Part shown: piece by piece, positions 4,233 to 62,768 of the stretch
How the letters are laid out: each line of letters starts with the position of its first letter
Position numbering within the stretch: the stretch's first letter is position 1
Virus record (IMG/VR): IMGVR_UViG_3300047320_000362
Strand: one strand, 5' to 3'
From: an uncultured virus (IMG/VR IMGVR_UViG_3300047320_000362)
Lineage: Duplodnaviria > Heunggongvirae > Uroviricota > Caudoviricetes
DNA: 64,000 nucleotides
Program-made: the position numbers and the translations under genes
Notes under the pieces: model-generated
What the model saw: only the letters and a program-made list of their open reading frames with translations
Database searches by the model: none
What the model was told of the DNA's origin: nothing

Positions 4233-5442
4233 TTGGCGCATCTCAAAGCCTATCGTCTGAAGCTCTATCCGTCGAAAATGCAGTCTGCTATTTTGGCTCG
4301 ACATGTCGGCGCTTGCCGATGGCTATGGAACCACCTTCTCGCCATGCAGAAGGCAAAATACGCCGCCGACGGCAAGTTCATCTTTTTTTACGAGATGGCA
4401 AAGATGCTACCCACACTCAAGCGGGAGCATGTGTGGCTTTCCGAAGCGCCTAGCAATAGCTTGGTACGAATCTGCAAGAATCTGGATTCGGCGTTGAGAA
4501 AGTGTTTCAGAGAGGGTGCTGGATTTCCGCGCTTCAAGGCGCGGGGCAAATCAAAGCAATCCTTTTACGTCGCCAACCACGTCATGCGGATCGAAGGAAA
4601 TGGCAGGGCGCTCCTTCCCAAAATGGGGCAGGTGCGATTCCGCGCCAGCCGAATTCCAGAGGGCCGTGTCCTCGGGGCTAACGTCGCATGGAACGGCAGG
4701 GCTTGGGAACTGACCGTCCAGTGCGAGACGGACGGGGCCGTTCCCGACATTGCCCCTCAGTCGGTCACCCTTATCGGCGTGGATCTCGGACTGAAGGATC
4801 TGATGGTTCGATCGGACGGCGTCTCGGTCAAACCGCACGGGTAGCGCCAACCGGGAGCGGCAAGCCCGGCGCGTCGGCAGAGTTCATGCTCGGGTTCGCG
4901 ACACTCGCCGGGATGCGCAACACAAAGCAACGGCTTCGCTTGTTGCGGCAGCGTCAGCGGTGGTCACTGAAGACCTGAATGTGAAGGGCATGATCCGGAA
5001 CAGGCATCTTGCCCTGTCGATCTCCGACGCGGGCTGGGGCGAGATCGTCCGCCAGGTCAGCTACAAGTGCCAATGGGCTGGCAAGATTCACATCAAGGCC
5101 GGGAGGTTCGAACCCTCCACGCAGACATGCTCGACATGTGGGAACAGATTGACCGGAGACGATAGGCTCCGGCTTCATCAACGCACCTATCGGTGCGTGT
5201 GCGGAGCGGTCATCGACCGCGACTGCAACGCGGCGAGGAATCTGCGCCGCTACGGGCTTAACGCCCTTGGACTGGAAGACACGAACGACGTAGGGCAGGC
5301 TATGCCCGAACGGGCCAGTGGGATTCGTCTCGTGGCCGACGCCTGTGGAGAGACCCCTGACGGGAGGATTGCGCCAGCAATCCTTAGTCATGTCTCGCTG
5401 AAGCTGGAAGTGGAGCACGTTCAACCGAAACTTTCCGCATAG
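4233..5442 (+). pseudogene. tnpB: TnpB (IS200/IS605/IS607-type RNA-guided nuclease) disrupted by an internal frameshifting deletion near 4835-4840
   Basis: 5' part has KAYRLKLYP HTH and GVDLGLKDL (RuvC-I); from 4840 another frame reads GSANRERQARRV..HKAT..VVTEDLNVKGM (RuvC-II), CSTC/CVC Zn ribbon and DRDCNAARN (RuvC-III); about 20 codons normally between the parts are absent; no tnpA seen. Confidence 0.9.
5288..5442 (+). ncRNA. putative TnpB omegaRNA / element right-end region
   Basis: GTAGGGCAGGCTATGCCCGAA...ACGCCTGTGGAGA...TGAAGCTGGAAG blocks of the kind found at tnpB 3' ends; boundaries uncertain. Confidence 0.4.
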
Positions 5443-9786: not shown

Positions 9787-9929
9787 GAGGATTCCTTCCC
9801 TTGTCTGGAAATCATGATGTCCAGGTTCGGGCGCGACGGCAACATCGAATCCATGACAAACGAGTTGACCTTCCGCCGCATTCGAACGAACATTTCCGGA
9901 GCCAGCCACCCCAGACAAGGATCTTCCCC

Positions 9930-10400
9930 ATGCCCGCAATTACACCCAATGCCATCGCCGCAGCAGTTCTCCTGCTCGCCTCGCAAACCACCGTTCTGGC
10001 TGGCGATATCCGCTCGCATGGGGTCGAGGTGCAGGCGCTGGCTGCGAAGGAAACTCTCGATGGGACGATGAAGTCGGTATCCGTCCGATCGATCGAGGTA
10101 CCGAAGAACGACGCCTCCATCCATGTCGTGGCGACGAAGGTCGGCTGGGTATCATCGATCTCGTTCCGCTCCCCCGACGGCAAGCGCTGCGCCTTCACTG
10201 ACGTCACTGTTGGATCCGGCGCCTTCAATATCGTGCCGGAAGGTGGCACCGTCCATGTGCACCCGCAGATGACAGGCCTGGCCACCAACCTGAACGTCTC
10301 CGTCGCGGGGAGCCGGGAGATCCGCACCTTCGTCCTCGAGGCGGGCACCGAAAAGGTAGACACGCGGACGGAAGTCGTCATGGATTGCCCGCAGGGATAG
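9930..10400 (+). CDS. short DotH/IcmK (TraN)-like secreted protein
   Basis: Signal peptide; GWVSSISFRSPDG, FNI and NLNVSVAG...FVLEAGTEKVDTR resemble the DotH/IcmK core (GFVSSLVFLDSTG..FNI..NLAV.L.G...LIPGQKAVDYR). Confidence 0.55.
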   Translation: MPAITPNAIAAAVLLLASQTTVLAGDIRSHGVEVQALAAKETLDGTMKSVSVRSIEVPKNDASIHVVATKVGWVSSISFRSPDGKRCAFTDVTVGSGAFNIVPEGGTVHVHPQMTGLATNLNVSVAGSREIRTFVLEAGTEKVDTRTEVVMDCPQG

Positions 10401-15051: not shown

Positions 15052-15774
15052 ATGCTGAAGCTCTGCACGCTCACGGGCGTCGATGAATCGACATCCTTCG
15101 ACTGGATCGTCAACACCGCGCAGCTCCATGCGCGGGCCGAGTTCGGCATCCTTCTCTCCGCCACGTCCGACGGCAGTGACAACCGCTACCCGTCCCGCGC
15201 CTTCATCGAGAAATTCGCCGGAGCCATGCAGGGCGCGATGGTCAACACCGCGGTTCACATCTGCGGGCGCGCTGTCCGGATGTTCGTCGATGGCGACAGC
15301 GAAATCCGCGGACTTGCCGCGCGCTTCGGACGTGTCCAGTTGAACTTCAACGCCCAGCACGTTCCGTTCTCGTACGAGGAGCTGGACGCCGCCATCGCGT
15401 CGTTCTCACGCCCGGTGATCACCCAGCACAACGAGGCCAACGCCTGCGTGGCGGCCAGCATCAAGGCGCCGAACCACCATGTGCTGTTCGACGCGTCCGG
15501 CGGCCGCGGCATCCACGCCAAGGAATGGCCGGAGAGGCTCCATGGGAAGCTCTACGGCTACGCCGGAGGGTTCGGCCCCGAGACGCTGATCTTCGATCTC
15601 AAGGGCGCGCAGGATGCGTCCGAAGGGCGGCCGTTCTGGATCGACATGGAGAGCCGCCTTCGCCACGACAACTGGCTCGACGCGTCCATCTGCGAGACCG
15701 TGCTGCGCTGCGCCTCCGCATGGGCCGACGCCGAGAAGCACCGTCACTGCCAGGAGCGCAAGATCGATGGCTAA
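15052..15774 (+). CDS. TrpF (PRA isomerase)-like TIM-barrel protein
   Basis: LFDASGGRG, GYAGGFGP, FWIDMES motifs. Confidence 0.7.
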   Translation: MLKLCTLTGVDESTSFDWIVNTAQLHARAEFGILLSATSDGSDNRYPSRAFIEKFAGAMQGAMVNTAVHICGRAVRMFVDGDSEIRGLAARFGRVQLNFNAQHVPFSYEELDAAIASFSRPVITQHNEANACVAASIKAPNHHVLFDASGGRGIHAKEWPERLHGKLYGYAGGFGPETLIFDLKGAQDASEGRPFWIDMESRLRHDNWLDASICETVLRCASAWADAEKHRHCQERKIDG

Positions 15775-15922
15775 ACGGAACAAGACCGAAGGCATGCTGG
15801 GCGACCAGAGCCGCTGGGAGATCATCAAGTATCTCCTGCTGATCGGAGACTACCGAGCGGCCGTCGCATGGCTGTTCGTCAGGCGCCGGAAACCCGCCCC
15901 GGCGCCACGCCACGGTTCGTGA
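15767..15922 (+). CDS. small hypothetical protein
   Basis: Overlaps the previous stop; AGGAG SD. Confidence 0.4.
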   Translation: MAKRNKTEGMLGDQSRWEIIKYLLLIGDYRAAVAWLFVRRRKPAPAPRHGS

Positions 15923-15992
15923 ACACCAACGCGCCCTTATGGATTCAATCCAGCCGGATACCGCCCCGGCGTTTCACATGCAGGAGAGACGG

Positions 15993-16208
15993 ATGAACAG
16001 GGATGAAATCGAGTCCGCGGCAGCCGTCTTGGGGAAGATGAACCGTCTCTGGCGTGACCCCCAGGCTCGAAAGAGATTCGAGCAGGAAGCCGGCCTGGAT
16101 CCCATCATTTCAGGGAACAGCCCTGAGGTCGAGGACCAGCACCAATCCGGACGGACTGAACAGTACCATGTCAGGTTCGAAGCATGGGCGCGAAGCCAGG
16201 AAATCTGA
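15993..16208 (+). CDS. small hypothetical protein
   Basis: AGGAG SD, ATG 15993. Confidence 0.55.
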   Translation: MNRDEIESAAAVLGKMNRLWRDPQARKRFEQEAGLDPIISGNSPEVEDQHQSGRTEQYHVRFEAWARSQEI

Positions 16209-16809
16209 ACACCCGCCAAACCATTCCTGTGACAGAGGACATATCATGAGCACTGAATCGCATATCTACTACGGCTTCTCCCTGACCGAGGACTACGACA
16301 AGATCCAGGAGGTTCTTGGCGAGATCCTGGACGACGAGGGGTTCAACCTTCAGGACTACGTCTGGGAAAACGAGATCGGCGAAAGTCACTACAACGGCGG
16401 CGGATACGGCCAGGTGACTTGCGTCGGGAAGGACATCCCCGAGACCGACCGCGGCTATGTAGTCACGGACGAGATCATCGCAGAGGTCAAGTCGATGATC
16501 GCCAATCTTCCGTCCGAGTTCCAGAAGGCGCTGAAGGAAGTTGTAGGCAGCCAATCATTTTGACCGGCAGCCATTCAAATGTCGCAGTAGATGCGATGGC
16601 TGGATGGCGATCAATATTCTGAAAACATAGTCGAAATCCGCTTTGAGGTCAATCTTGGCCTGGAATTCATGCGGGTCGCAGTAGTGGCCCAGTTGAACCA
16701 AGGTGCTCGGTAACAACATTTGCGCTCGTCTTCGTCGGATCCCACCTATGGGGTTTGCGCCGGCACAGATCGACCGGAAGATAGGGTCACATTTCCGGAG
16801 TCCTTTCTG

Positions 16810-17433
16810 ATGCCGATCATCGACATGTCGCTCGACAGCGATACACTTGCCGCCAAGATCACCGCCTCGGTCGACCAGATCGCCGACGGAATAGGGAACT
16901 GTGAGGGCGGAAAGATTTATGTCGTCGGCAGCGCCGATGACTTCGATGAAATCTGCGCGCCATTGATCGATCAGTTGCCTAACGTCGTCGGCAGCGCCTG
17001 CATCTGGGCGAAGCTTCGGCCGAGTCCCATTTTCCCGACGAATGTGGATGTCATCATCACCGGAAACTACATCGAGCCCGGAAAGGACGGATGCGCCCTT
17101 GTTCTCTGCCAGTCCGTGGTCGCCCTTCCAGAGCAAATAATTGCGGCTGCCTCTCAAGTGTTGGAGACCTTCGACGCCTCGCAAGTCGTACTTGCGGCCG
17201 TCAGCATCGCCCCGTCGGCGCGCACGGAACTGGCGAGGTTCTTTCATGAACGCTATGGGATCGAGGCCCGCTTTGTAAGCCTTGAGGATTACCCGGTGCC
17301 CGCACCTCCACTGACCTTTCATCACCGCTTCGTCGATCTTATCGACAACCGTCCCAAGCGCGATTTCCCGGTGATGCCGGAATGGGTCTTGGATCGTATC
17401 AAGGGGAACGGAGAAATGACGGACGACGAGTAG
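16810..17433 (+). CDS. cargo protein, possible degenerate phosphoribosyltransferase-like fold
   Basis: Alpha/beta alternation (KIYVVGSADDFD, ACIW, NYIEP, ALVLCQSVV); inside the mini-transposon. Confidence 0.55.
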   Translation: MPIIDMSLDSDTLAAKITASVDQIADGIGNCEGGKIYVVGSADDFDEICAPLIDQLPNVVGSACIWAKLRPSPIFPTNVDVIITGNYIEPGKDGCALVLCQSVVALPEQIIAAASQVLETFDASQVVLAAVSIAPSARTELARFFHERYGIEARFVSLEDYPVPAPPLTFHHRFVDLIDNRPKRDFPVMPEWVLDRIKGNGEMTDDE

Positions 17434-17486
17434 AGGTCATGGCACTTCCAAAACTTGATTGCCATCCTGTGAAGAGGATTTAGGAA

Positions 17487-17771
17487 ATGATCGACGTCGA
17501 TATGGAATCCGTACCCGCGTTCACCGACGCAGTGAACTCTGCCGCGCGCAATGGCGAGCTGAGGGGCGTCGCGAGGTCGCTCGCGAGGTACCTCAATGCG
17601 CGCGGAGTGAACCATCCTGACATTCACAAGCACCTGTGCGAACTCCCTCTCGGCACGCTTCGGCAACTACGGGACGAATGCTTCAATACCGACGATCGGG
17701 AAGAACTTGGTGAGACCCGCGTAGGCGACTTCGGACTTTCGGGCACTCCAAAGAATAGATATCCGGGGTGA
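17487..17771 (+). CDS. hypothetical cargo protein
   Basis: AGGA SD, ATG; inside the mini-transposon. Confidence 0.5.
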   Translation: MIDVDMESVPAFTDAVNSAARNGELRGVARSLARYLNARGVNHPDIHKHLCELPLGTLRQLRDECFNTDDREELGETRVGDFGLSGTPKNRYPG

Positions 17772-18121
17772 GGGCCTGAACGCGACGTGTGGTCAAGTCT
17801 CTTACCATATTGGGAAGTATTATCGCCACAGGCTCACACGTCGACCGACGCCGGCCCGATATCGAGTCATGCAGTCATGGTTAATTTCCGTCAACGATTC
17901 CAATTATTTGGCGATCTCGGTCAAATTCACATGGCTGTCGCGTCAAAATGGATTGGCTGCGGGAATCACCAAGTCGTTGGAATCACACAATCCGCTGCGT
18001 CATAATCAGTGGCTGCCTATAGAAGTCTACGGCGAGGTTCCGGAACCGAAGTTCGAGCACGAGCACAGCGACGGCTGACATAGCCGTTCGCCACAAACAG
18101 CAGCAACAAGGAAATACAAGA

Positions 18122-18490
18122 ATGGGTGCTTATACCACACAGTTCTGGGGCATCAGCCTCACTGAACGCTACGAGAAGATCGAGGAGGCAATGCCGTCCC
18201 TCGACCCGGAAAATGCGACGGGCGACGACGGGGAGATCGCGGAACTCTCCGACTACATCCGCCATCACAAGCTCGGCAGGTCGCTGTATGACGGCGGCGG
18301 CTGGGGACAGATCACATTCATCGGGGTCTCCATCAAGCCCTCCGCCCGCGGCGTCGTCGTGACCGATGAGCACGTTGCGGAAGTGGCCGCCATCATCGAA
18401 CGGATCCCGGACGAGCTGAAGGATGTCCTGACCAAGGTCTATGGAAGCATTCCCGAACCCGCATTCCACACCGAGGAAGGCTGGGGCTGA
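18122..18490 (+). CDS. hypothetical protein
   Basis: AAGGA SD; paralog of the interrupted gene (G.SLTE.Y.KI.E, Y.GGG.GQ.T..G, RG.VVTDE..AEV). Confidence 0.75.
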   Translation: MGAYTTQFWGISLTERYEKIEEAMPSLDPENATGDDGEIAELSDYIRHHKLGRSLYDGGGWGQITFIGVSIKPSARGVVVTDEHVAEVAAIIERIPDELKDVLTKVYGSIPEPAFHTEEGWG

Positions 18491-18633
18491 CCTCAAGCAC
18501 CTACTACAATTCGCGCTATGGACGGAAAATGACCTATAGCGCGAATTGTTTATGCAATGCTCGTTCGGTGCGGGTCGCAGTGAACCTGTCAATCTTGACG
18601 ACCTCGCTCGATCGGAGCGACGATCACGATGGA

Positions 18634-30245: not shown

Positions 30246-32252
30246 ATGGCTACTTCGGCTGAAAAAATCGATGCAACCGACACTGCCTCTGGCCCCGACC
30301 GTCCGCTCCTGGACATGACCGACTTTGCGGTCAAGCGCATGATCGCTGCGGCGAAGAAGCGCGGCCACGTCAGCATGGACACGCTCAACACCGTGATCTC
30401 CACCGACGAGATGTCAGCCGAGGCCATCGAAGACATGCTCGCCATGATCTCCGACATGGGCATCAACATCGTGGAGGACGACGAAGCCGACGACTACGAC
30501 GGCGAGGGCGACGGGCACGAGGAGGAAGAGGAGCCGGAGACCCAGATCGCGGTCGCCAGCCCCAAGGCCCTCGCAGCCAGCAAGAAGAAGGAGCCGACCG
30601 ATCGCACCGACGATCCCGTGCGCATGTATCTGCGCGAGATGGGTTCGGTCCAGCTTCTGTCGAGAGAAGGCGAGATCGCCATCGCCAAGCGCATCGAATC
30701 CGGCAAGGAGACGATGATCGCCGGCCTCTGTGAAAGCCCCCTGACATTCCAAGCCATCATCATCTGGCGCGACGAGCTGCTGCAGGGCACGACCCTTCTT
30801 CGTGACATCATCGACCTCGACGCAACCTACTCCGGGCCGGAGGCGAAGGCCGCGCCGGAATTCAAGAGCGCCGAACAGCTCGAACTCGAACGCAAGGCAG
30901 CGGAAGAGAAGGAGCGTGCGCGCAAGGCGCGGCAGGCCGAGGAAGACATCACCAATGTCGGCGGGGAGGCTCCGGTCGTCGAGGAGAGCGAAGACGACGA
31001 CAGCACTCTCTCCATCGTCGCCATGGAGGCGGAACTGCTGCCGCAGGTGACGGTGATCCTGAACGAGATCGCCGATATCTACGCCTCGCTGCGCAACCTG
31101 CAGGGCAAAGCCCATCTCTCCGCGGCCGAGCAGGAGCGTCTTTCCGCCTTCAGGACCGACCTCATCGCCTCCGTGAAGAAGCTGTCGCTTCACCACAAGC
31201 GCGTCGAAAGCCTCCTCGAACAGCTCTTCGCAATCTCGAAGAATCTCCTCGGCAGCGAGGGCCGCCTGCTGCGTCTGGCGGAATCGCACGGCGTTCGCCG
31301 CGACGACTTCCTCGCCCACTACAGCGGCCACGAGCTTGATGCGAACTGGATCGACCAGATCTCCCAGCTCCCGGGCAAATGGAAGGCGTTCGCGGAAAGG
31401 GAGGCCGACACCATCAAGTCGATCCTCGGAGATATCCAGACGCTCGTCGCAGACACTGGTATCACGCCCGGAGAATTCCGGCGCATCGTGGCTCAGGTCC
31501 AGAAGGGCGAGCGCGAGGCGCGCGTCGCCAAGAAGGAGATGGTCGAAGCCAACCTCCGTCTGGTCATCTCGATCGCGAAGAAGTACACGAACCGCGGCCT
31601 GCAGTTCCTTGATCTTATTCAGGAAGGCAACATCGGACTGATGAAGGCGGTCGACAAGTTCGAGTACCGCCGCGGCTACAAGTTCTCGACCTACGCCACA
31701 TGGTGGATCCGGCAGGCGATCACCCGCTCCATCGCCGACCAGGCACGCACGATCCGCATTCCGGTGCACATGATCGAGACCGTGAACAAGATCATCCGGA
31801 CATCGCGCCAGATGCTTCACTCGCTCGGTCGCGAGCCGACCCCCGAGGAGCTGTCGGAGGTGCTCAAGATGCCTCTGGACAAGGTTCAGAAGACGCTGAA
31901 GATCGCAAGGGAGCCGATCTCGCTCGAAACCCCGGTGGGCGACGAGGACGGTGACTCCAGCGTCGGCGACTTCATCGAGGACAAGGGCGCTGTGCTCCCG
32001 ATCGATGCGGCCGTGGCGGCGAACCTGCGCGAGACGACGACAAAGGTTCTGGCCACCCTGACGGCGAGGGAGGAGCGGGTGCTGCGCATGCGCTTCGGCA
32101 TCGGCATGAATACCGACCACACGCTCGAAGAGGTCGGCGTGCAGTTCTCGGTCACGAGGGAGCGCATCCGCCAGATCGAGGCGAAGGCGCTGCGCAAGCT
32201 CAAGCATCCGAGCCGCAGCCGTGCGCTGCGCACCTTCCTCGAAGCATCGTAG
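30246..32252 (+). CDS. rpoD: RNA polymerase primary sigma factor (sigma70), element-borne paralog
   Basis: Region 1.1, [11 protein letters not shown] (1.2), [55 protein letters not shown]. Confidence 0.97.
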
Positions 32253-61247: not shown

Positions 61248-62768
61248 ATGCGCTTTTCCAATGCCTTCCTTGACGAGCTGCGTGAACGCGTTCCGATTTC
61301 GGACGTGATCGGCCGCCGCATGGTCTGGGACGAGCGCCAGACAAACGTCGCGCGCGGCGAATACTGGGGCTGCTGCCCGTTCCATCGCGAGAGGTCTCCA
61401 AGCTTCCACTGCTATATCCGCAAGGGGCGCTATCACTGCTTCGGCTGCGGGCAGAGTGGCGACCACTTCAAGTTCCTGATCGAGCTGGAGGGCCTGAGCT
61501 TTCCTGAGGCCGTGCAGCAGATCGCTGACATGGGCGGTGTCACGCTGCCTGCAGCGGATCCGGTCTCGGAAGAGCGCGAGAAGGAGCGCAAATCGCTTCT
61601 CGATGTCATGGAGCTTGCGACCCGGTTCTTCGAGGAGCGGCTGCTGTCGGTGGATGGTGCCAAGGCGAGGGCCTATCTGCAAGGGCGAGGACTGACAGAG
61701 GATACGATCGAGACGTTCCGGCTGGGCTTCGCTCCGGACAGCCGCAATGCCTTGAAGGAGTTCCTGGCAGGAAAGGGCGTCTCCAGGCAGCAAATCGAAG
61801 CCTGCGGACTTGTCGTGCACGGCCCAGACATTCAGGTTTCCTACGACCGCTTCCGCGACCGGATCATGTTTCCGATCCTGTCGCCACTCGAGAAGGTCAT
61901 CGCATTCGGCGGGAGGGCCATGTCACCCGGCGCATCCCCAAAGTATCTCACCGCCAGCGACACCGAGCTCTTCCGCAAGGGCGACATCCTCTACAACCTC
62001 GCGCGGGCGCGCCGGGCCTCCAATAGCGGGAGGGGGAATGGGGGTGTCGTGGCCGTCGAAGGCTACATGGATGTGATCGCGCTGCATCAGGCGGGCGTCG
62101 AGAATGCCGTGGCACCCCTCGGCACCGCGCTGACCCGCAACCAGCTAAAGCTACTCTGGAGGATTGCTCGGGAGCCGATCCTCTGCTTCGATGGCGACAG
62201 CGCTGGCACCCGGGCCGCGAACCGGGCCGCCGATCTGGCGCTTCCAAGCATCAGGCCGGGCCGCAGCCTTCGCTTCGCCCTTCTTCCCGACGGCAAGGAT
62301 CCTGACGATCTGGTGCGCGAGGAGGGCAGGAGTGCGTTTGACAGCGCGAGGCAGCAGGCCACGGCGCTGTCGGAACTGATCTGGATCCGCGAGATCGGCG
62401 ACGCGCGGTTCGACACGCCAGAGGCCAGAGCCGAACTTGAGGTGCGCCTCAGAGACATCGGGAACGCTATCGCCGATGAAGGCGCGCGCCACCAGTACCA
62501 GCAGGAAATGCGCGACCGCATGAACAGCTTCTTTTCAAGCGCCGATCGATACACCGGTCTTCTTGGCGACGGCCTGGACATAACCGGAAGACAGATCGAG
62601 TACTGGGGAGACATCTGGACGGTCACGGGCAAGAACTACCTCGGTGACTGGGATGTCGAGCGCTTCGAGACGAGGCCCGACGGCAGGTTCAGGATCACGT
62701 CGTCCATCTGCCCGAAAATTCTCCCCGAGACGCACGGGCACTTCGCGCGTCTTGTCAGCCATTCCTGA
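61248..62768 (+). CDS. dnaG: DNA primase DnaG (CHC2 Zn finger + TOPRIM), C-terminus replaced
   Basis: CCPFH..SPSF..HCFGC, YDRFRDRIMFPI, FGGR, VEGYMDV, FDGD.AG, KDPDD. Confidence 0.93.
   Translation: MRFSNAFLDELRERVPISDVIGRRMVWDERQTNVARGEYWGCCPFHRERSPSFHCYIRKGRYHCFGCGQSGDHFKFLIELEGLSFPEAVQQIADMGGVTLPAADPVSEEREKERKSLLDVMELATRFFEERLLSVDGAKARAYLQGRGLTEDTIETFRLGFAPDSRNALKEFLAGKGVSRQQIEACGLVVHGPDIQVSYDRFRDRIMFPILSPLEKVIAFGGRAMSPGASPKYLTASDTELFRKGDILYNLARARRASNSGRGNGGVVAVEGYMDVIALHQAGVENAVAPLGTALTRNQLKLLWRIAREPILCFDGDSAGTRAANRAADLALPSIRPGRSLRFALLPDGKDPDDLVREEGRSAFDSARQQATALSELIWIREIGDARFDTPEARAELEVRLRDIGNAIADEGARHQYQQEMRDRMNSFFSSADRYTGLLGDGLDITGRQIEYWGDIWTVTGKNYLGDWDVERFETRPDGRFRITSSICPKILPETHGHFARLVSHS

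Follow-up and report, generated by a model that had tools for sequence, protein, structure and literature searches.

The closest natural analogue of the element described here is found in the class 1 integrons In0 and In2, tni-defective derivatives of Tn402 that have kept both terminal repeats and lost the transposition module, and that were moved in trans by the tni genes of Tn502 with a 5-bp duplication (PMC3575428, partial text). The closest engineered analogue is the laboratory donor of the mini-Tn7, mini-Tn6022 or mini-CAST (CRISPR-associated transposon) type, which consists of the ends only, ∼70–155 bp each, with a small cargo and the proteins supplied in trans (PMC11014353, partial text). 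Miniature inverted-repeat transposable elements (MITEs) and the Tn3-derived inverted-repeat miniature elements (TIMEs) are also non-autonomous and rely on a transposase made elsewhere (PMC4133298; PMC3575428; both in part). Surveys of Tn7-like transposons, to judge from excerpts of PMC8649781, seed on tnsB, so that transposase-free members would be missed by design, and we found no description of a natural transposase-free Tn7-like element in open-access full text and bioRxiv, the supplements of PMC8649781 excluded. Here we describe a 1480-bp element in the record IMGVR_UViG_3300047320_000362 of an uncultured virus, analysed as one stretch of 64,000 nucleotides (the window). The element is very probably a non-autonomous member of a Tn7-like family of the Rhizobiaceae, which would have moved as a mini unit with the proteins of a relative and through a target pathway other than the one that leads this family to nrdJ, the class II ribonucleotide reductase gene.

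With Tn7 and Tn6022-like transposons the window element shares asymmetric ends built of repeat arrays, a TGT-type terminus and a 5-bp duplication, and its relatives encode a TnsB-like DDE transposase, an AAA+ protein of the TnsC/TniB type, TniQ and a probable TnsA, and insert in one direction just downstream of a conserved housekeeping gene, with defence genes as cargo. It differs from them in that the window copy has no transposition genes and lies off the attachment (att) site, that the att gene of the family is nrdJ, that half of the family's right-type ends terminate in TAT, and that the autonomous relatives carry their cargo between the att-proximal end and tnsA. Tn7 has 3 + 4 binding sites at its ends, whereas the window element has 2 + 3. 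In0 and In2 belong to the Tn5053/Tn402 branch, which is replicative with a resolvase, and their cargo is an integron platform, whereas the helper family considered here has a TnsA-like gene and an att site at nrdJ. The laboratory mini donors have the same layout as the window element but are engineered, while the latter is natural and only putatively active. MITEs, finally, are non-coding and, like TIMEs, derive from insertion sequence (IS) or Tn3 families, in contrast to the window element with its two open reading frames (ORFs) and Tn7-type ends.

Structure of the element

The element is bounded by two copies of GAAGT (Table 1). Its first letters are TGTAGGCAGCCA and its last letters TGGCTGCCTATA, with TGT at the left terminus and TAT at the right, and its terminal inverted repeat comprises 21 nt with 86% complementarity (16544–16564 and 17999–18019). 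The sequence TRTAGGCAGCCA, allowing at most one mismatch, matches twice in the whole window, both times at the ends of the element, where 0.16 matches are expected; two or more matches arose in 2 of 100 shuffles. At the left end there are two repeat units with a period of 20 bp, and at the right end three, namely a terminal unit and, ∼35 bp further inward, an adjacent pair 22 bp apart. This layout of two sites on the left and three on the right is kept across 13 left-type and eight right-type ends of the family introduced below. The more general motif GCCA-N6-8-TG[AT]C occurs 23 times on the two strands of the window, and five of these occurrences fall within the element's terminal 110 nt, each pointing inward; the corresponding Poisson probability (P ∼2e-10) is only indicative, as the motif was defined post hoc. 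We regard the five units, among them GCAGCCAATCATTTTGAC (L1) and GCAGCCATTCAAATGTCGCAG (L2), as putative TnsB-binding sites.

Between the ends lie ∼1.2 kb of cargo, consisting of a gene for a protein with phosphoribosyltransferase (PRT) fold and a 94-codon ORF. Neither of the two ORFs has a transposition-related domain, and no TniQ, TniB or TnsB (DDE) was found in the element or among the 92 ORFs of at least 170 aa in the window, in which these two are also the only ends of the family. A scan for promoters and terminators found three promoter-like sites, all of them weak, and not a single terminator, and is not treated as evidence. The initial annotation, made from the sequence alone, had already recognised a transposase-free element of 1480 bp between GAAGT duplicates, and we arrive at the same coordinates; of the two left and three to four right repeats it counted, the two on the left were recovered, and on the right we see three conserved units and not four.

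Interrupted gene and empty site

The element sits in a small, conserved gene, 16 codons ahead of its stop. The N-terminal part of this gene reads into the element and ends in KEVVGSQSF before the new stop codon, and the displaced C-terminal part (18022–18078) translates as EVYGEVPEPKFEHEHSDG followed by a stop; both parts align with the paralog that adjoins the gene at 18122–18490. When the gene was described as split in frame this was correct in so far as the frame returns on removal of the element and one copy of GAAGT; the expression carries no meaning beyond that. The closest homologue of the host protein (P0002, 93% identical) ends in ALKEVYGEVPEPKFEHEHSDG, exactly the junction predicted by such a removal, and thus the restored C-terminus, first noticed for its match to the adjacent paralog, is found in a homologue as well. 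Including P0002, the host protein has eight non-self homologues, 114–116 aa long, and none of them is interrupted.

Two further kinds of evidence come from metagenomes. A scan with P0002 yielded only a relative of 71% identity, at locus L080, and not the 93% allele itself. This locus is syntenic with the window and its neighbourhood is 72–81% identical to it at the nucleotide level, and here the window flanks 16244–16532 and 18026–18491 lie just 8 bp apart. Furthermore, Logan contigs of four rhizosphere-metagenome runs were aligned to positions 16000–18600 of the window, parts without contig cover not being interpreted. In two of the four runs (X6 and X12) one contig each joins 16536 to 18022, skipping 1485 bp (1480 + 5), with five letters that fit either side; both runs also contain contigs that span the filled junction. 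Since the empty-site contigs differ from the window at many positions, they represent alleles of related strains and not products of excision. The empty-site alleles that the initial annotation suggested looking for were therefore found by the homologue, by the syntenic locus and by the contigs of two runs, three independent lines which all give the empty site, and the element is an insertion. The host gene was not found in a sample of 400 genomes from the family to which G001 belongs, a result with no bearing on other genomes.

One might also suppose that the segment is not mobile and that repeats and duplication arose by chance or through a local rearrangement. A short duplication would be in keeping with this, and nothing else is. 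The exact empty-site joint in two runs already refutes it, and it also conflicts with the conservation of the ends across 13 loci and with the enrichment of the motif at the termini, so that we consider it hardly credible.

Some differences between the window and its relatives concern the surroundings of the insertion. In X5, X6 and X12 there are contigs that lead from 18081 to 18501 or 18520 through 34–55 other letters, and related strains thus seem to be without the paralog at 18122–18490. Upstream of the host gene, ∼436 bp of the window (15775–16243), including an 89-codon ORF (15939–16208), are absent from L080, and no terminal repeats or duplication were found for this stretch. A search of 15700–18200 against Rfam returned only Hammerhead_II (15866–15979, minus strand), outside the element and below threshold (22 bits, gathering score 37, E 0.23).

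Related ends and autonomous elements

To find relatives of the ends, the pattern TRTAGGCAGCCANNNATTNTG was scanned over 185,579 species genomes, which gave 64 loci. Thirteen of them continue with the same internal repeats (seven left-type with two sites, six right-type with three), and all thirteen are assigned to Rhizobium, Pararhizobium, Rhizobiaceae or alphaproteobacteria; the other 51 have neither the internal repeats nor further similarity and were discarded as chance matches to a 17-base pattern. Over the core sites the ends of the window element are 72–86% (left, 50 nt) and 63–81% (right, 105 nt) identical to the other ends of the family.

In a Pfam scan of ORFs of at least 220 aa inside these ends, TniQ was detected near four of the six right-type ends that do not belong to mini elements (L022, L033, L049, L068) and TniB/AAA_22 near three of them (L022, L049, L068). 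The ORF upstream of tniB, 806 aa long in L068, finds its matches in the PDB among the TnsB chains of PseCAST, Tn6677 and ShCAST (E 6e-17 to 3e-13), while the DDE models of IS481/IS3 and the rve family match it weakly. It is preceded by another ORF of 255–296 aa (294 aa in one element) that is 60–83% identical among three elements. In a language-model lookup this ORF scores 0.96 to Atlas clusters in which 14–34% of the members carry Tn7_TnsA-like_N (PF08722), and it has kept the motifs ESGLE, IDV and AVK, which we take to be those expected of a TnsA-type nuclease; on these grounds it is a probable TnsA.

By pattern searches of whole genomes, the two ends could be assigned to each other in three complete relatives, from R. 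tropici (29.1 kb, duplication ACGGA), Rhizobium sp. BK650 (37.0 kb, GCCAA) and Rhizobium sp. F40D2 (83.8 kb, TGCAT), so that a 5-bp duplication is present in all three. The left-type end of L036 and the end at L051, both from Pararhizobium, were considered as one element of 120 kb and rejected, as their flanks form no duplication and the L036 end abuts tniQ/tniB of another element. In this region of Pararhizobium sp. LjRoot235 (L036 10022–13230) the left-type end lies ∼250 bp from the 3′ end of these foreign tniQ and tniB genes, which indicates that Tn7-like elements are stacked in tandem there, as in the plasmid array described below.

Elements with homologous ends thus encode TnsB, TniB/TnsC, TniQ and a probable TnsA, and their insertion generates 5-bp duplications. 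This bears on several proposals of the initial annotation: the autonomous relatives it suggested searching for with the two ends exist, its view of the element as a non-autonomous cargo carrier agrees with them, and among the affiliations it offered (Tn7, Tn5053, CAST or IS21) the Tn7 type is the one that holds, the others finding no support. With no transposition genes in the element or the window and homologous ends on elements that have them, the window element is best described as a non-autonomous Tn7-like mini-transposon. A derivation from a Tn5053/Tn402-type transposon (tniABQ with resolvase, replicative) or from IS21, instead of a cut-and-paste transposon of the Tn7 type, had to be considered, as 5-bp duplications and repeated ends are also features of the Tn5053/Tn402 and IS21 families and the Pfam names obtained on the relatives are TniB and TniQ. 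Such an origin appears very improbable to us, given that a TnsA-like gene precedes tnsB, that among solved structures the transposase is matched best by TnsB proteins of CAST and Tn7-like elements, that the ORFs of at least 120 aa within 10 kb of three tns-proximal ends contain no resolvase or integrase domain, and that nothing resembling IstA or IstB was seen near the homologous ends. There were also no other IS21-type matches near these ends, which flank TnsB, TniB and TniQ genes. As for CAST, no Cas domain was detected among the ORFs scanned at the family loci, 10 kb from each end; CRISPR arrays were not searched for.

The TAT terminus on the right had been read as a possible sign that the element is now immobile. 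This reading is not supported by the family, in which TAT is found at four of eight right-type ends (and one of 13 left-type ends), including that of the complete 83.8-kb element of F40D2, which combines a TGT left-type end with a TAT right-type end as the window element does, and has its tns genes and an intact TGCAT duplication. TAT is therefore a recurrent natural variant and no sign of decay. In an experiment on the termini TGT/ACA was changed to ACT/TGA (PMC11014353, partial text), which also alters the terminal base and, as far as this part of the source goes, is uninformative on TAT.

Target site and cargo of the relatives

Nine of the ten left-type ends that are not part of mini elements (L005, L006, L026, L039, L048, L007, L074, L075 and L076) are located 19–22 bp past the stop codon of nrdJ or directly beside this gene, which reads toward the element, and the tenth is the one that abuts tniQ/tniB of another element. 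The insertion of the family at nrdJ is site- and orientation-specific targeting of an att site in the manner of TnsD/TniQ. Reported att sites include the ribonucleotide reductase genes nrdB and nrdD (bioRxiv 10.1101/2025.07.27.667033, partial text); nrdJ as an att site was not found named in the main texts searched. In each of three contexts (nrdJ, the window, and element A of plasmid pRlX5, see below) it is the end with two sites that faces the 3′ end of a gene oriented toward the element, though the two cases besides nrdJ are weak evidence for a rule.

The cargo next to the ends of the family is largely of defence type (CBASS-type and other), comprising a patatin with CD-NTase and E1/E2, SAVED with SMODS, ABC-3C CTD6, a multiubiquitin/E2/E1/JAB set, a deaminase and MazEF. 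This agrees with what a survey of Tn7-like cargo reports (PMC8649781, partial text). The MazE/MazF (PemK) toxin–antitoxin pair is encoded in the R. rhizogenes element (L068 12625–13397), between tniQ and a patatin-like gene.

Small elements on plasmid pRlX5

A single record of PLSDB contains DNA related to the window element, the 1.32-Mb plasmid pRlX5 of R. leguminosarum TP16 (L001), which has three intact ends in its whole length. Two of them delimit element A (L001 2623–5304, 2682 bp, TGT...ACA), an intact and transposase-free element with three ORFs, none of which has a Pfam family. It starts 8 bp past the stop codon of an upstream ORF and is flanked by CTTTT and CTTTG. A second left end begins 8 bp after element A. 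Beyond it, fragments of a right and a left end are joined to each other, and next comes cargo of the window type (88% nucleotide identity), which lacks a right end. In the DNA bordering the left end, the window (16514–16541) and element A (L001 2604–2622) both have CCGAGTTCYAG followed by GCGCT, a resemblance that is probably due to chance, as the sequence lies at unequal distances from the two left ends (28 and 19 nt).

The mini elements (window, L001-A and L001-B/C) have in common a left end of ∼87–101 nt (78–80% identity) and a right end of 146 nt (75%), which continue past the conserved sites with sequence that has no counterpart in the autonomous elements. Their cargo differs, except for the one decayed copy on pRlX5 with the cargo of the window. 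That these elements have extended ends in common while their cargo and sites differ suggests that they would move as units. In the same array, the counterpart of window positions 16751–16821 is present twice (L001 6286–6356 and 7153–7223), on either side of ∼0.8 kb of additional DNA with two small ORFs, which has the appearance of a cassette inserted immediately upstream of the gene for the PRT-fold protein.

These data also bear on whether the window element could be a remnant made in place, where a full autonomous element would have inserted and then been reduced by internal deletion, which removed the tns genes and the greater part of the cargo, the 1480-bp unit itself never having transposed and perhaps being a fossil. 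An inserted element that later suffered an internal deletion would still show this duplication and both of these ends, there are deletion junctions between ends in the pRlX5 array, and a second full copy of the exact unit did not turn up. We nevertheless regard this as unlikely, because the extended ends (∼100 nt and 146 nt), common to the mini elements and absent from the autonomous ones, argue for a lineage of small elements and not for independent deletions, because the same left end and cargo recur at another site in another replicon, and because all five sites of the window element are intact.

Cargo proteins

The first cargo gene most likely starts at 16810. Its product is represented by two 90% clusters only among 5.8 billion, and an exhaustive HMMER search retrieved 35 proteins at E ≤1e-3. 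An alignment of 31 members shows the conserved motifs Y.VGNG.DFDEF, CQS.IAD..E and LDDR..K..P.MS.W. None of these 31 members matches Pfam, its PRT models included; neither cargo ORF had a match in Pfam, NCBIfam or PADLOC, and a PDB profile search with alignment A2 gave matches at chance level only (E 0.6). An AlphaFold2 model computed from the 31-member alignment reached a predicted local distance difference test (pLDDT) score of 94.1, and its top Foldseek matches in the PDB are type I phosphoribosyltransferases, including uracil phosphoribosyltransferases (E 5.5e-8, TM 0.60–0.66, 8–13% identity), with which an Atlas feature search agrees. A model from the single sequence was poor (pLDDT 48.6) and was not used. 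The canonical loop that binds phosphoribosyl pyrophosphate (PRPP) consists of an acidic pair followed by a T/S-G-x-T/S turn. No such loop is present here, the family consensus at this place being LLxCQSxIADxxE and the window protein having ALVLCQSVVALPEQ, and given this replacement we call the protein a predicted PRT-fold protein only and assign no activity to it.

Comparison with the pRlX5 copy gives a ratio of nonsynonymous to synonymous substitution rates (dN/dS) of 0.21 for the first cargo gene, which is under purifying selection. The 94-aa ORF is 89% identical to its pRlX5 counterpart over 76 residues, with a dN/dS of 0.53 over the aligned ORF. The autonomous element of R. tropici encodes, between tniQ and the right-type end, a distant member of the PRT-fold family (hhalign 97.8%, hmmsearch 2.6e-11). 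One contig of X6, of low depth (2.8) and with a shorter side of 30 nt, joins 16791 to 17415 with AAC in between; it could stem from a variant of the element that lacks almost exactly the PRT-fold gene, or else from a related element or an assembly artefact.

Replicon and origin of the element

The replicon carries genes for a type IV secretion system (T4SS) of the Dot/Icm type, a full-length rpoD-like sigma-70 factor and a DnaG primase. The best megablast match of the rpoD-like gene is on pRlX5, at 78.8%. An ORF of 203 aa at 4233–4844, with an N-terminal HTH_OrfB_IS605 domain alone, is probably a truncated gene of the TnpB/IS605 family.

Table 1. Features of the window that are discussed in the text, with positions and strands.
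Feature	Position	Strand	Remarks
Mini Tn7-like element, 1480 bp	16542..18021	+	without transposition genes
Left target-site duplication, GAAGT	16537..16541	.	sequence; empty-site joint 16536 to 18022
Right target-site duplication, GAAGT	18022..18026	.	sequence; empty-site joint
Left-end site L1, putative TnsB-binding site	16547..16564	+	conserved in 13 left-type ends
Left-end site L2, putative TnsB-binding site	16567..16587	+	
Right-end site R3, putative TnsB-binding site	17920..17938	-	
Right-end site R2, putative TnsB-binding site	17940..17960	-	
Right-end terminal site R1	17995..18016	-	terminus on this strand TATAG
Cargo gene 1, predicted type I PRT-fold protein	16810..17433	+	207 aa; no family name
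Cargo ORF 2	17487..17771	+	94 aa; no family; conserved in pRlX5 copy
Host gene, N-terminal part	16246..16541	+	99 codons; ORF now continues to stop at 16563
Host gene, displaced C-terminal part	18022..18078	+	18 codons and stop; first two codons (GAA GT.) from duplicated GAAGT
Intact paralog of host gene	18122..18490	+	122 aa; 42% identical to N-terminal part
T4SS (DotM_C, weak DotH/IcmK), sigma-70 and DnaG genes	628-1794, 9801-10400, 30246-32252, 61248-62768		

The view we favour, that the element arrived as a mini unit moved by the proteins of a relative, implies the following course of events. An autonomous relative present in that cell would have supplied a TnsB homologue, which would have bound the five sites and brought the ends together, acting jointly with TnsA if that protein is correctly assigned, and TnsC/TniB would have coupled the complex to a target other than nrdJ. 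Strand transfer with a 5-bp stagger would then have joined the element to the 3′ part of the small gene, duplicating GAAGT.

Several observations weigh against this view. The window copy is not at the nrdJ site of the family, and its right terminus is TAT, a single change that lies outside the published ACT/TGA test (PMC11014353, partial text). The empty-site contigs come from diverged relatives (32 of 273 nt differ in X6), and so demonstrate insertion and not current excision. No second identical copy of the whole 1480-bp unit was found that would document its movement as a mini unit. The ORF upstream of tnsB has no sequence match in Pfam, NCBIfam or the PDB, so that its assignment to TnsA comes from the language-model lookup and the motifs. 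Lastly, close relatives of TnsB are not found on PLSDB plasmids, where the best match is 43% identical. This distribution, together with the match of the rpoD-like gene to pRlX5, is indirectly in line with chromosomal helpers and plasmid-borne mini elements.

Taking this a step further, the elements of the window and of pRlX5 could form a lineage of transposase-free Tn7-like cargo shuttles with ends of ∼100 and 150 bp and exchanged cassettes, which would use the chromosomal nrdJ-targeting transposons to reach megaplasmids by the non-nrdJ pathway, and the PRT-fold protein, with CQS...D..E in place of the PRPP loop, could be a new accessory or defence-type module of mini and autonomous elements alike. 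We put this forward tentatively, and as a whole it is rather doubtful.

As the class of mechanism is well known, the practical weight of these findings is modest. They indicate that natural transposase-free Tn7-like elements exist with intact ends, a small coding cargo and a clean empty site, and that such elements sit on large secondary replicons, away from the chromosomal att site of the family. They thereby offer a concrete system for Tn7-like machinery used in trans and for a second, non-att target pathway in rhizobia, and they point to an unnamed family of PRT-fold proteins linked to Tn7-like elements.

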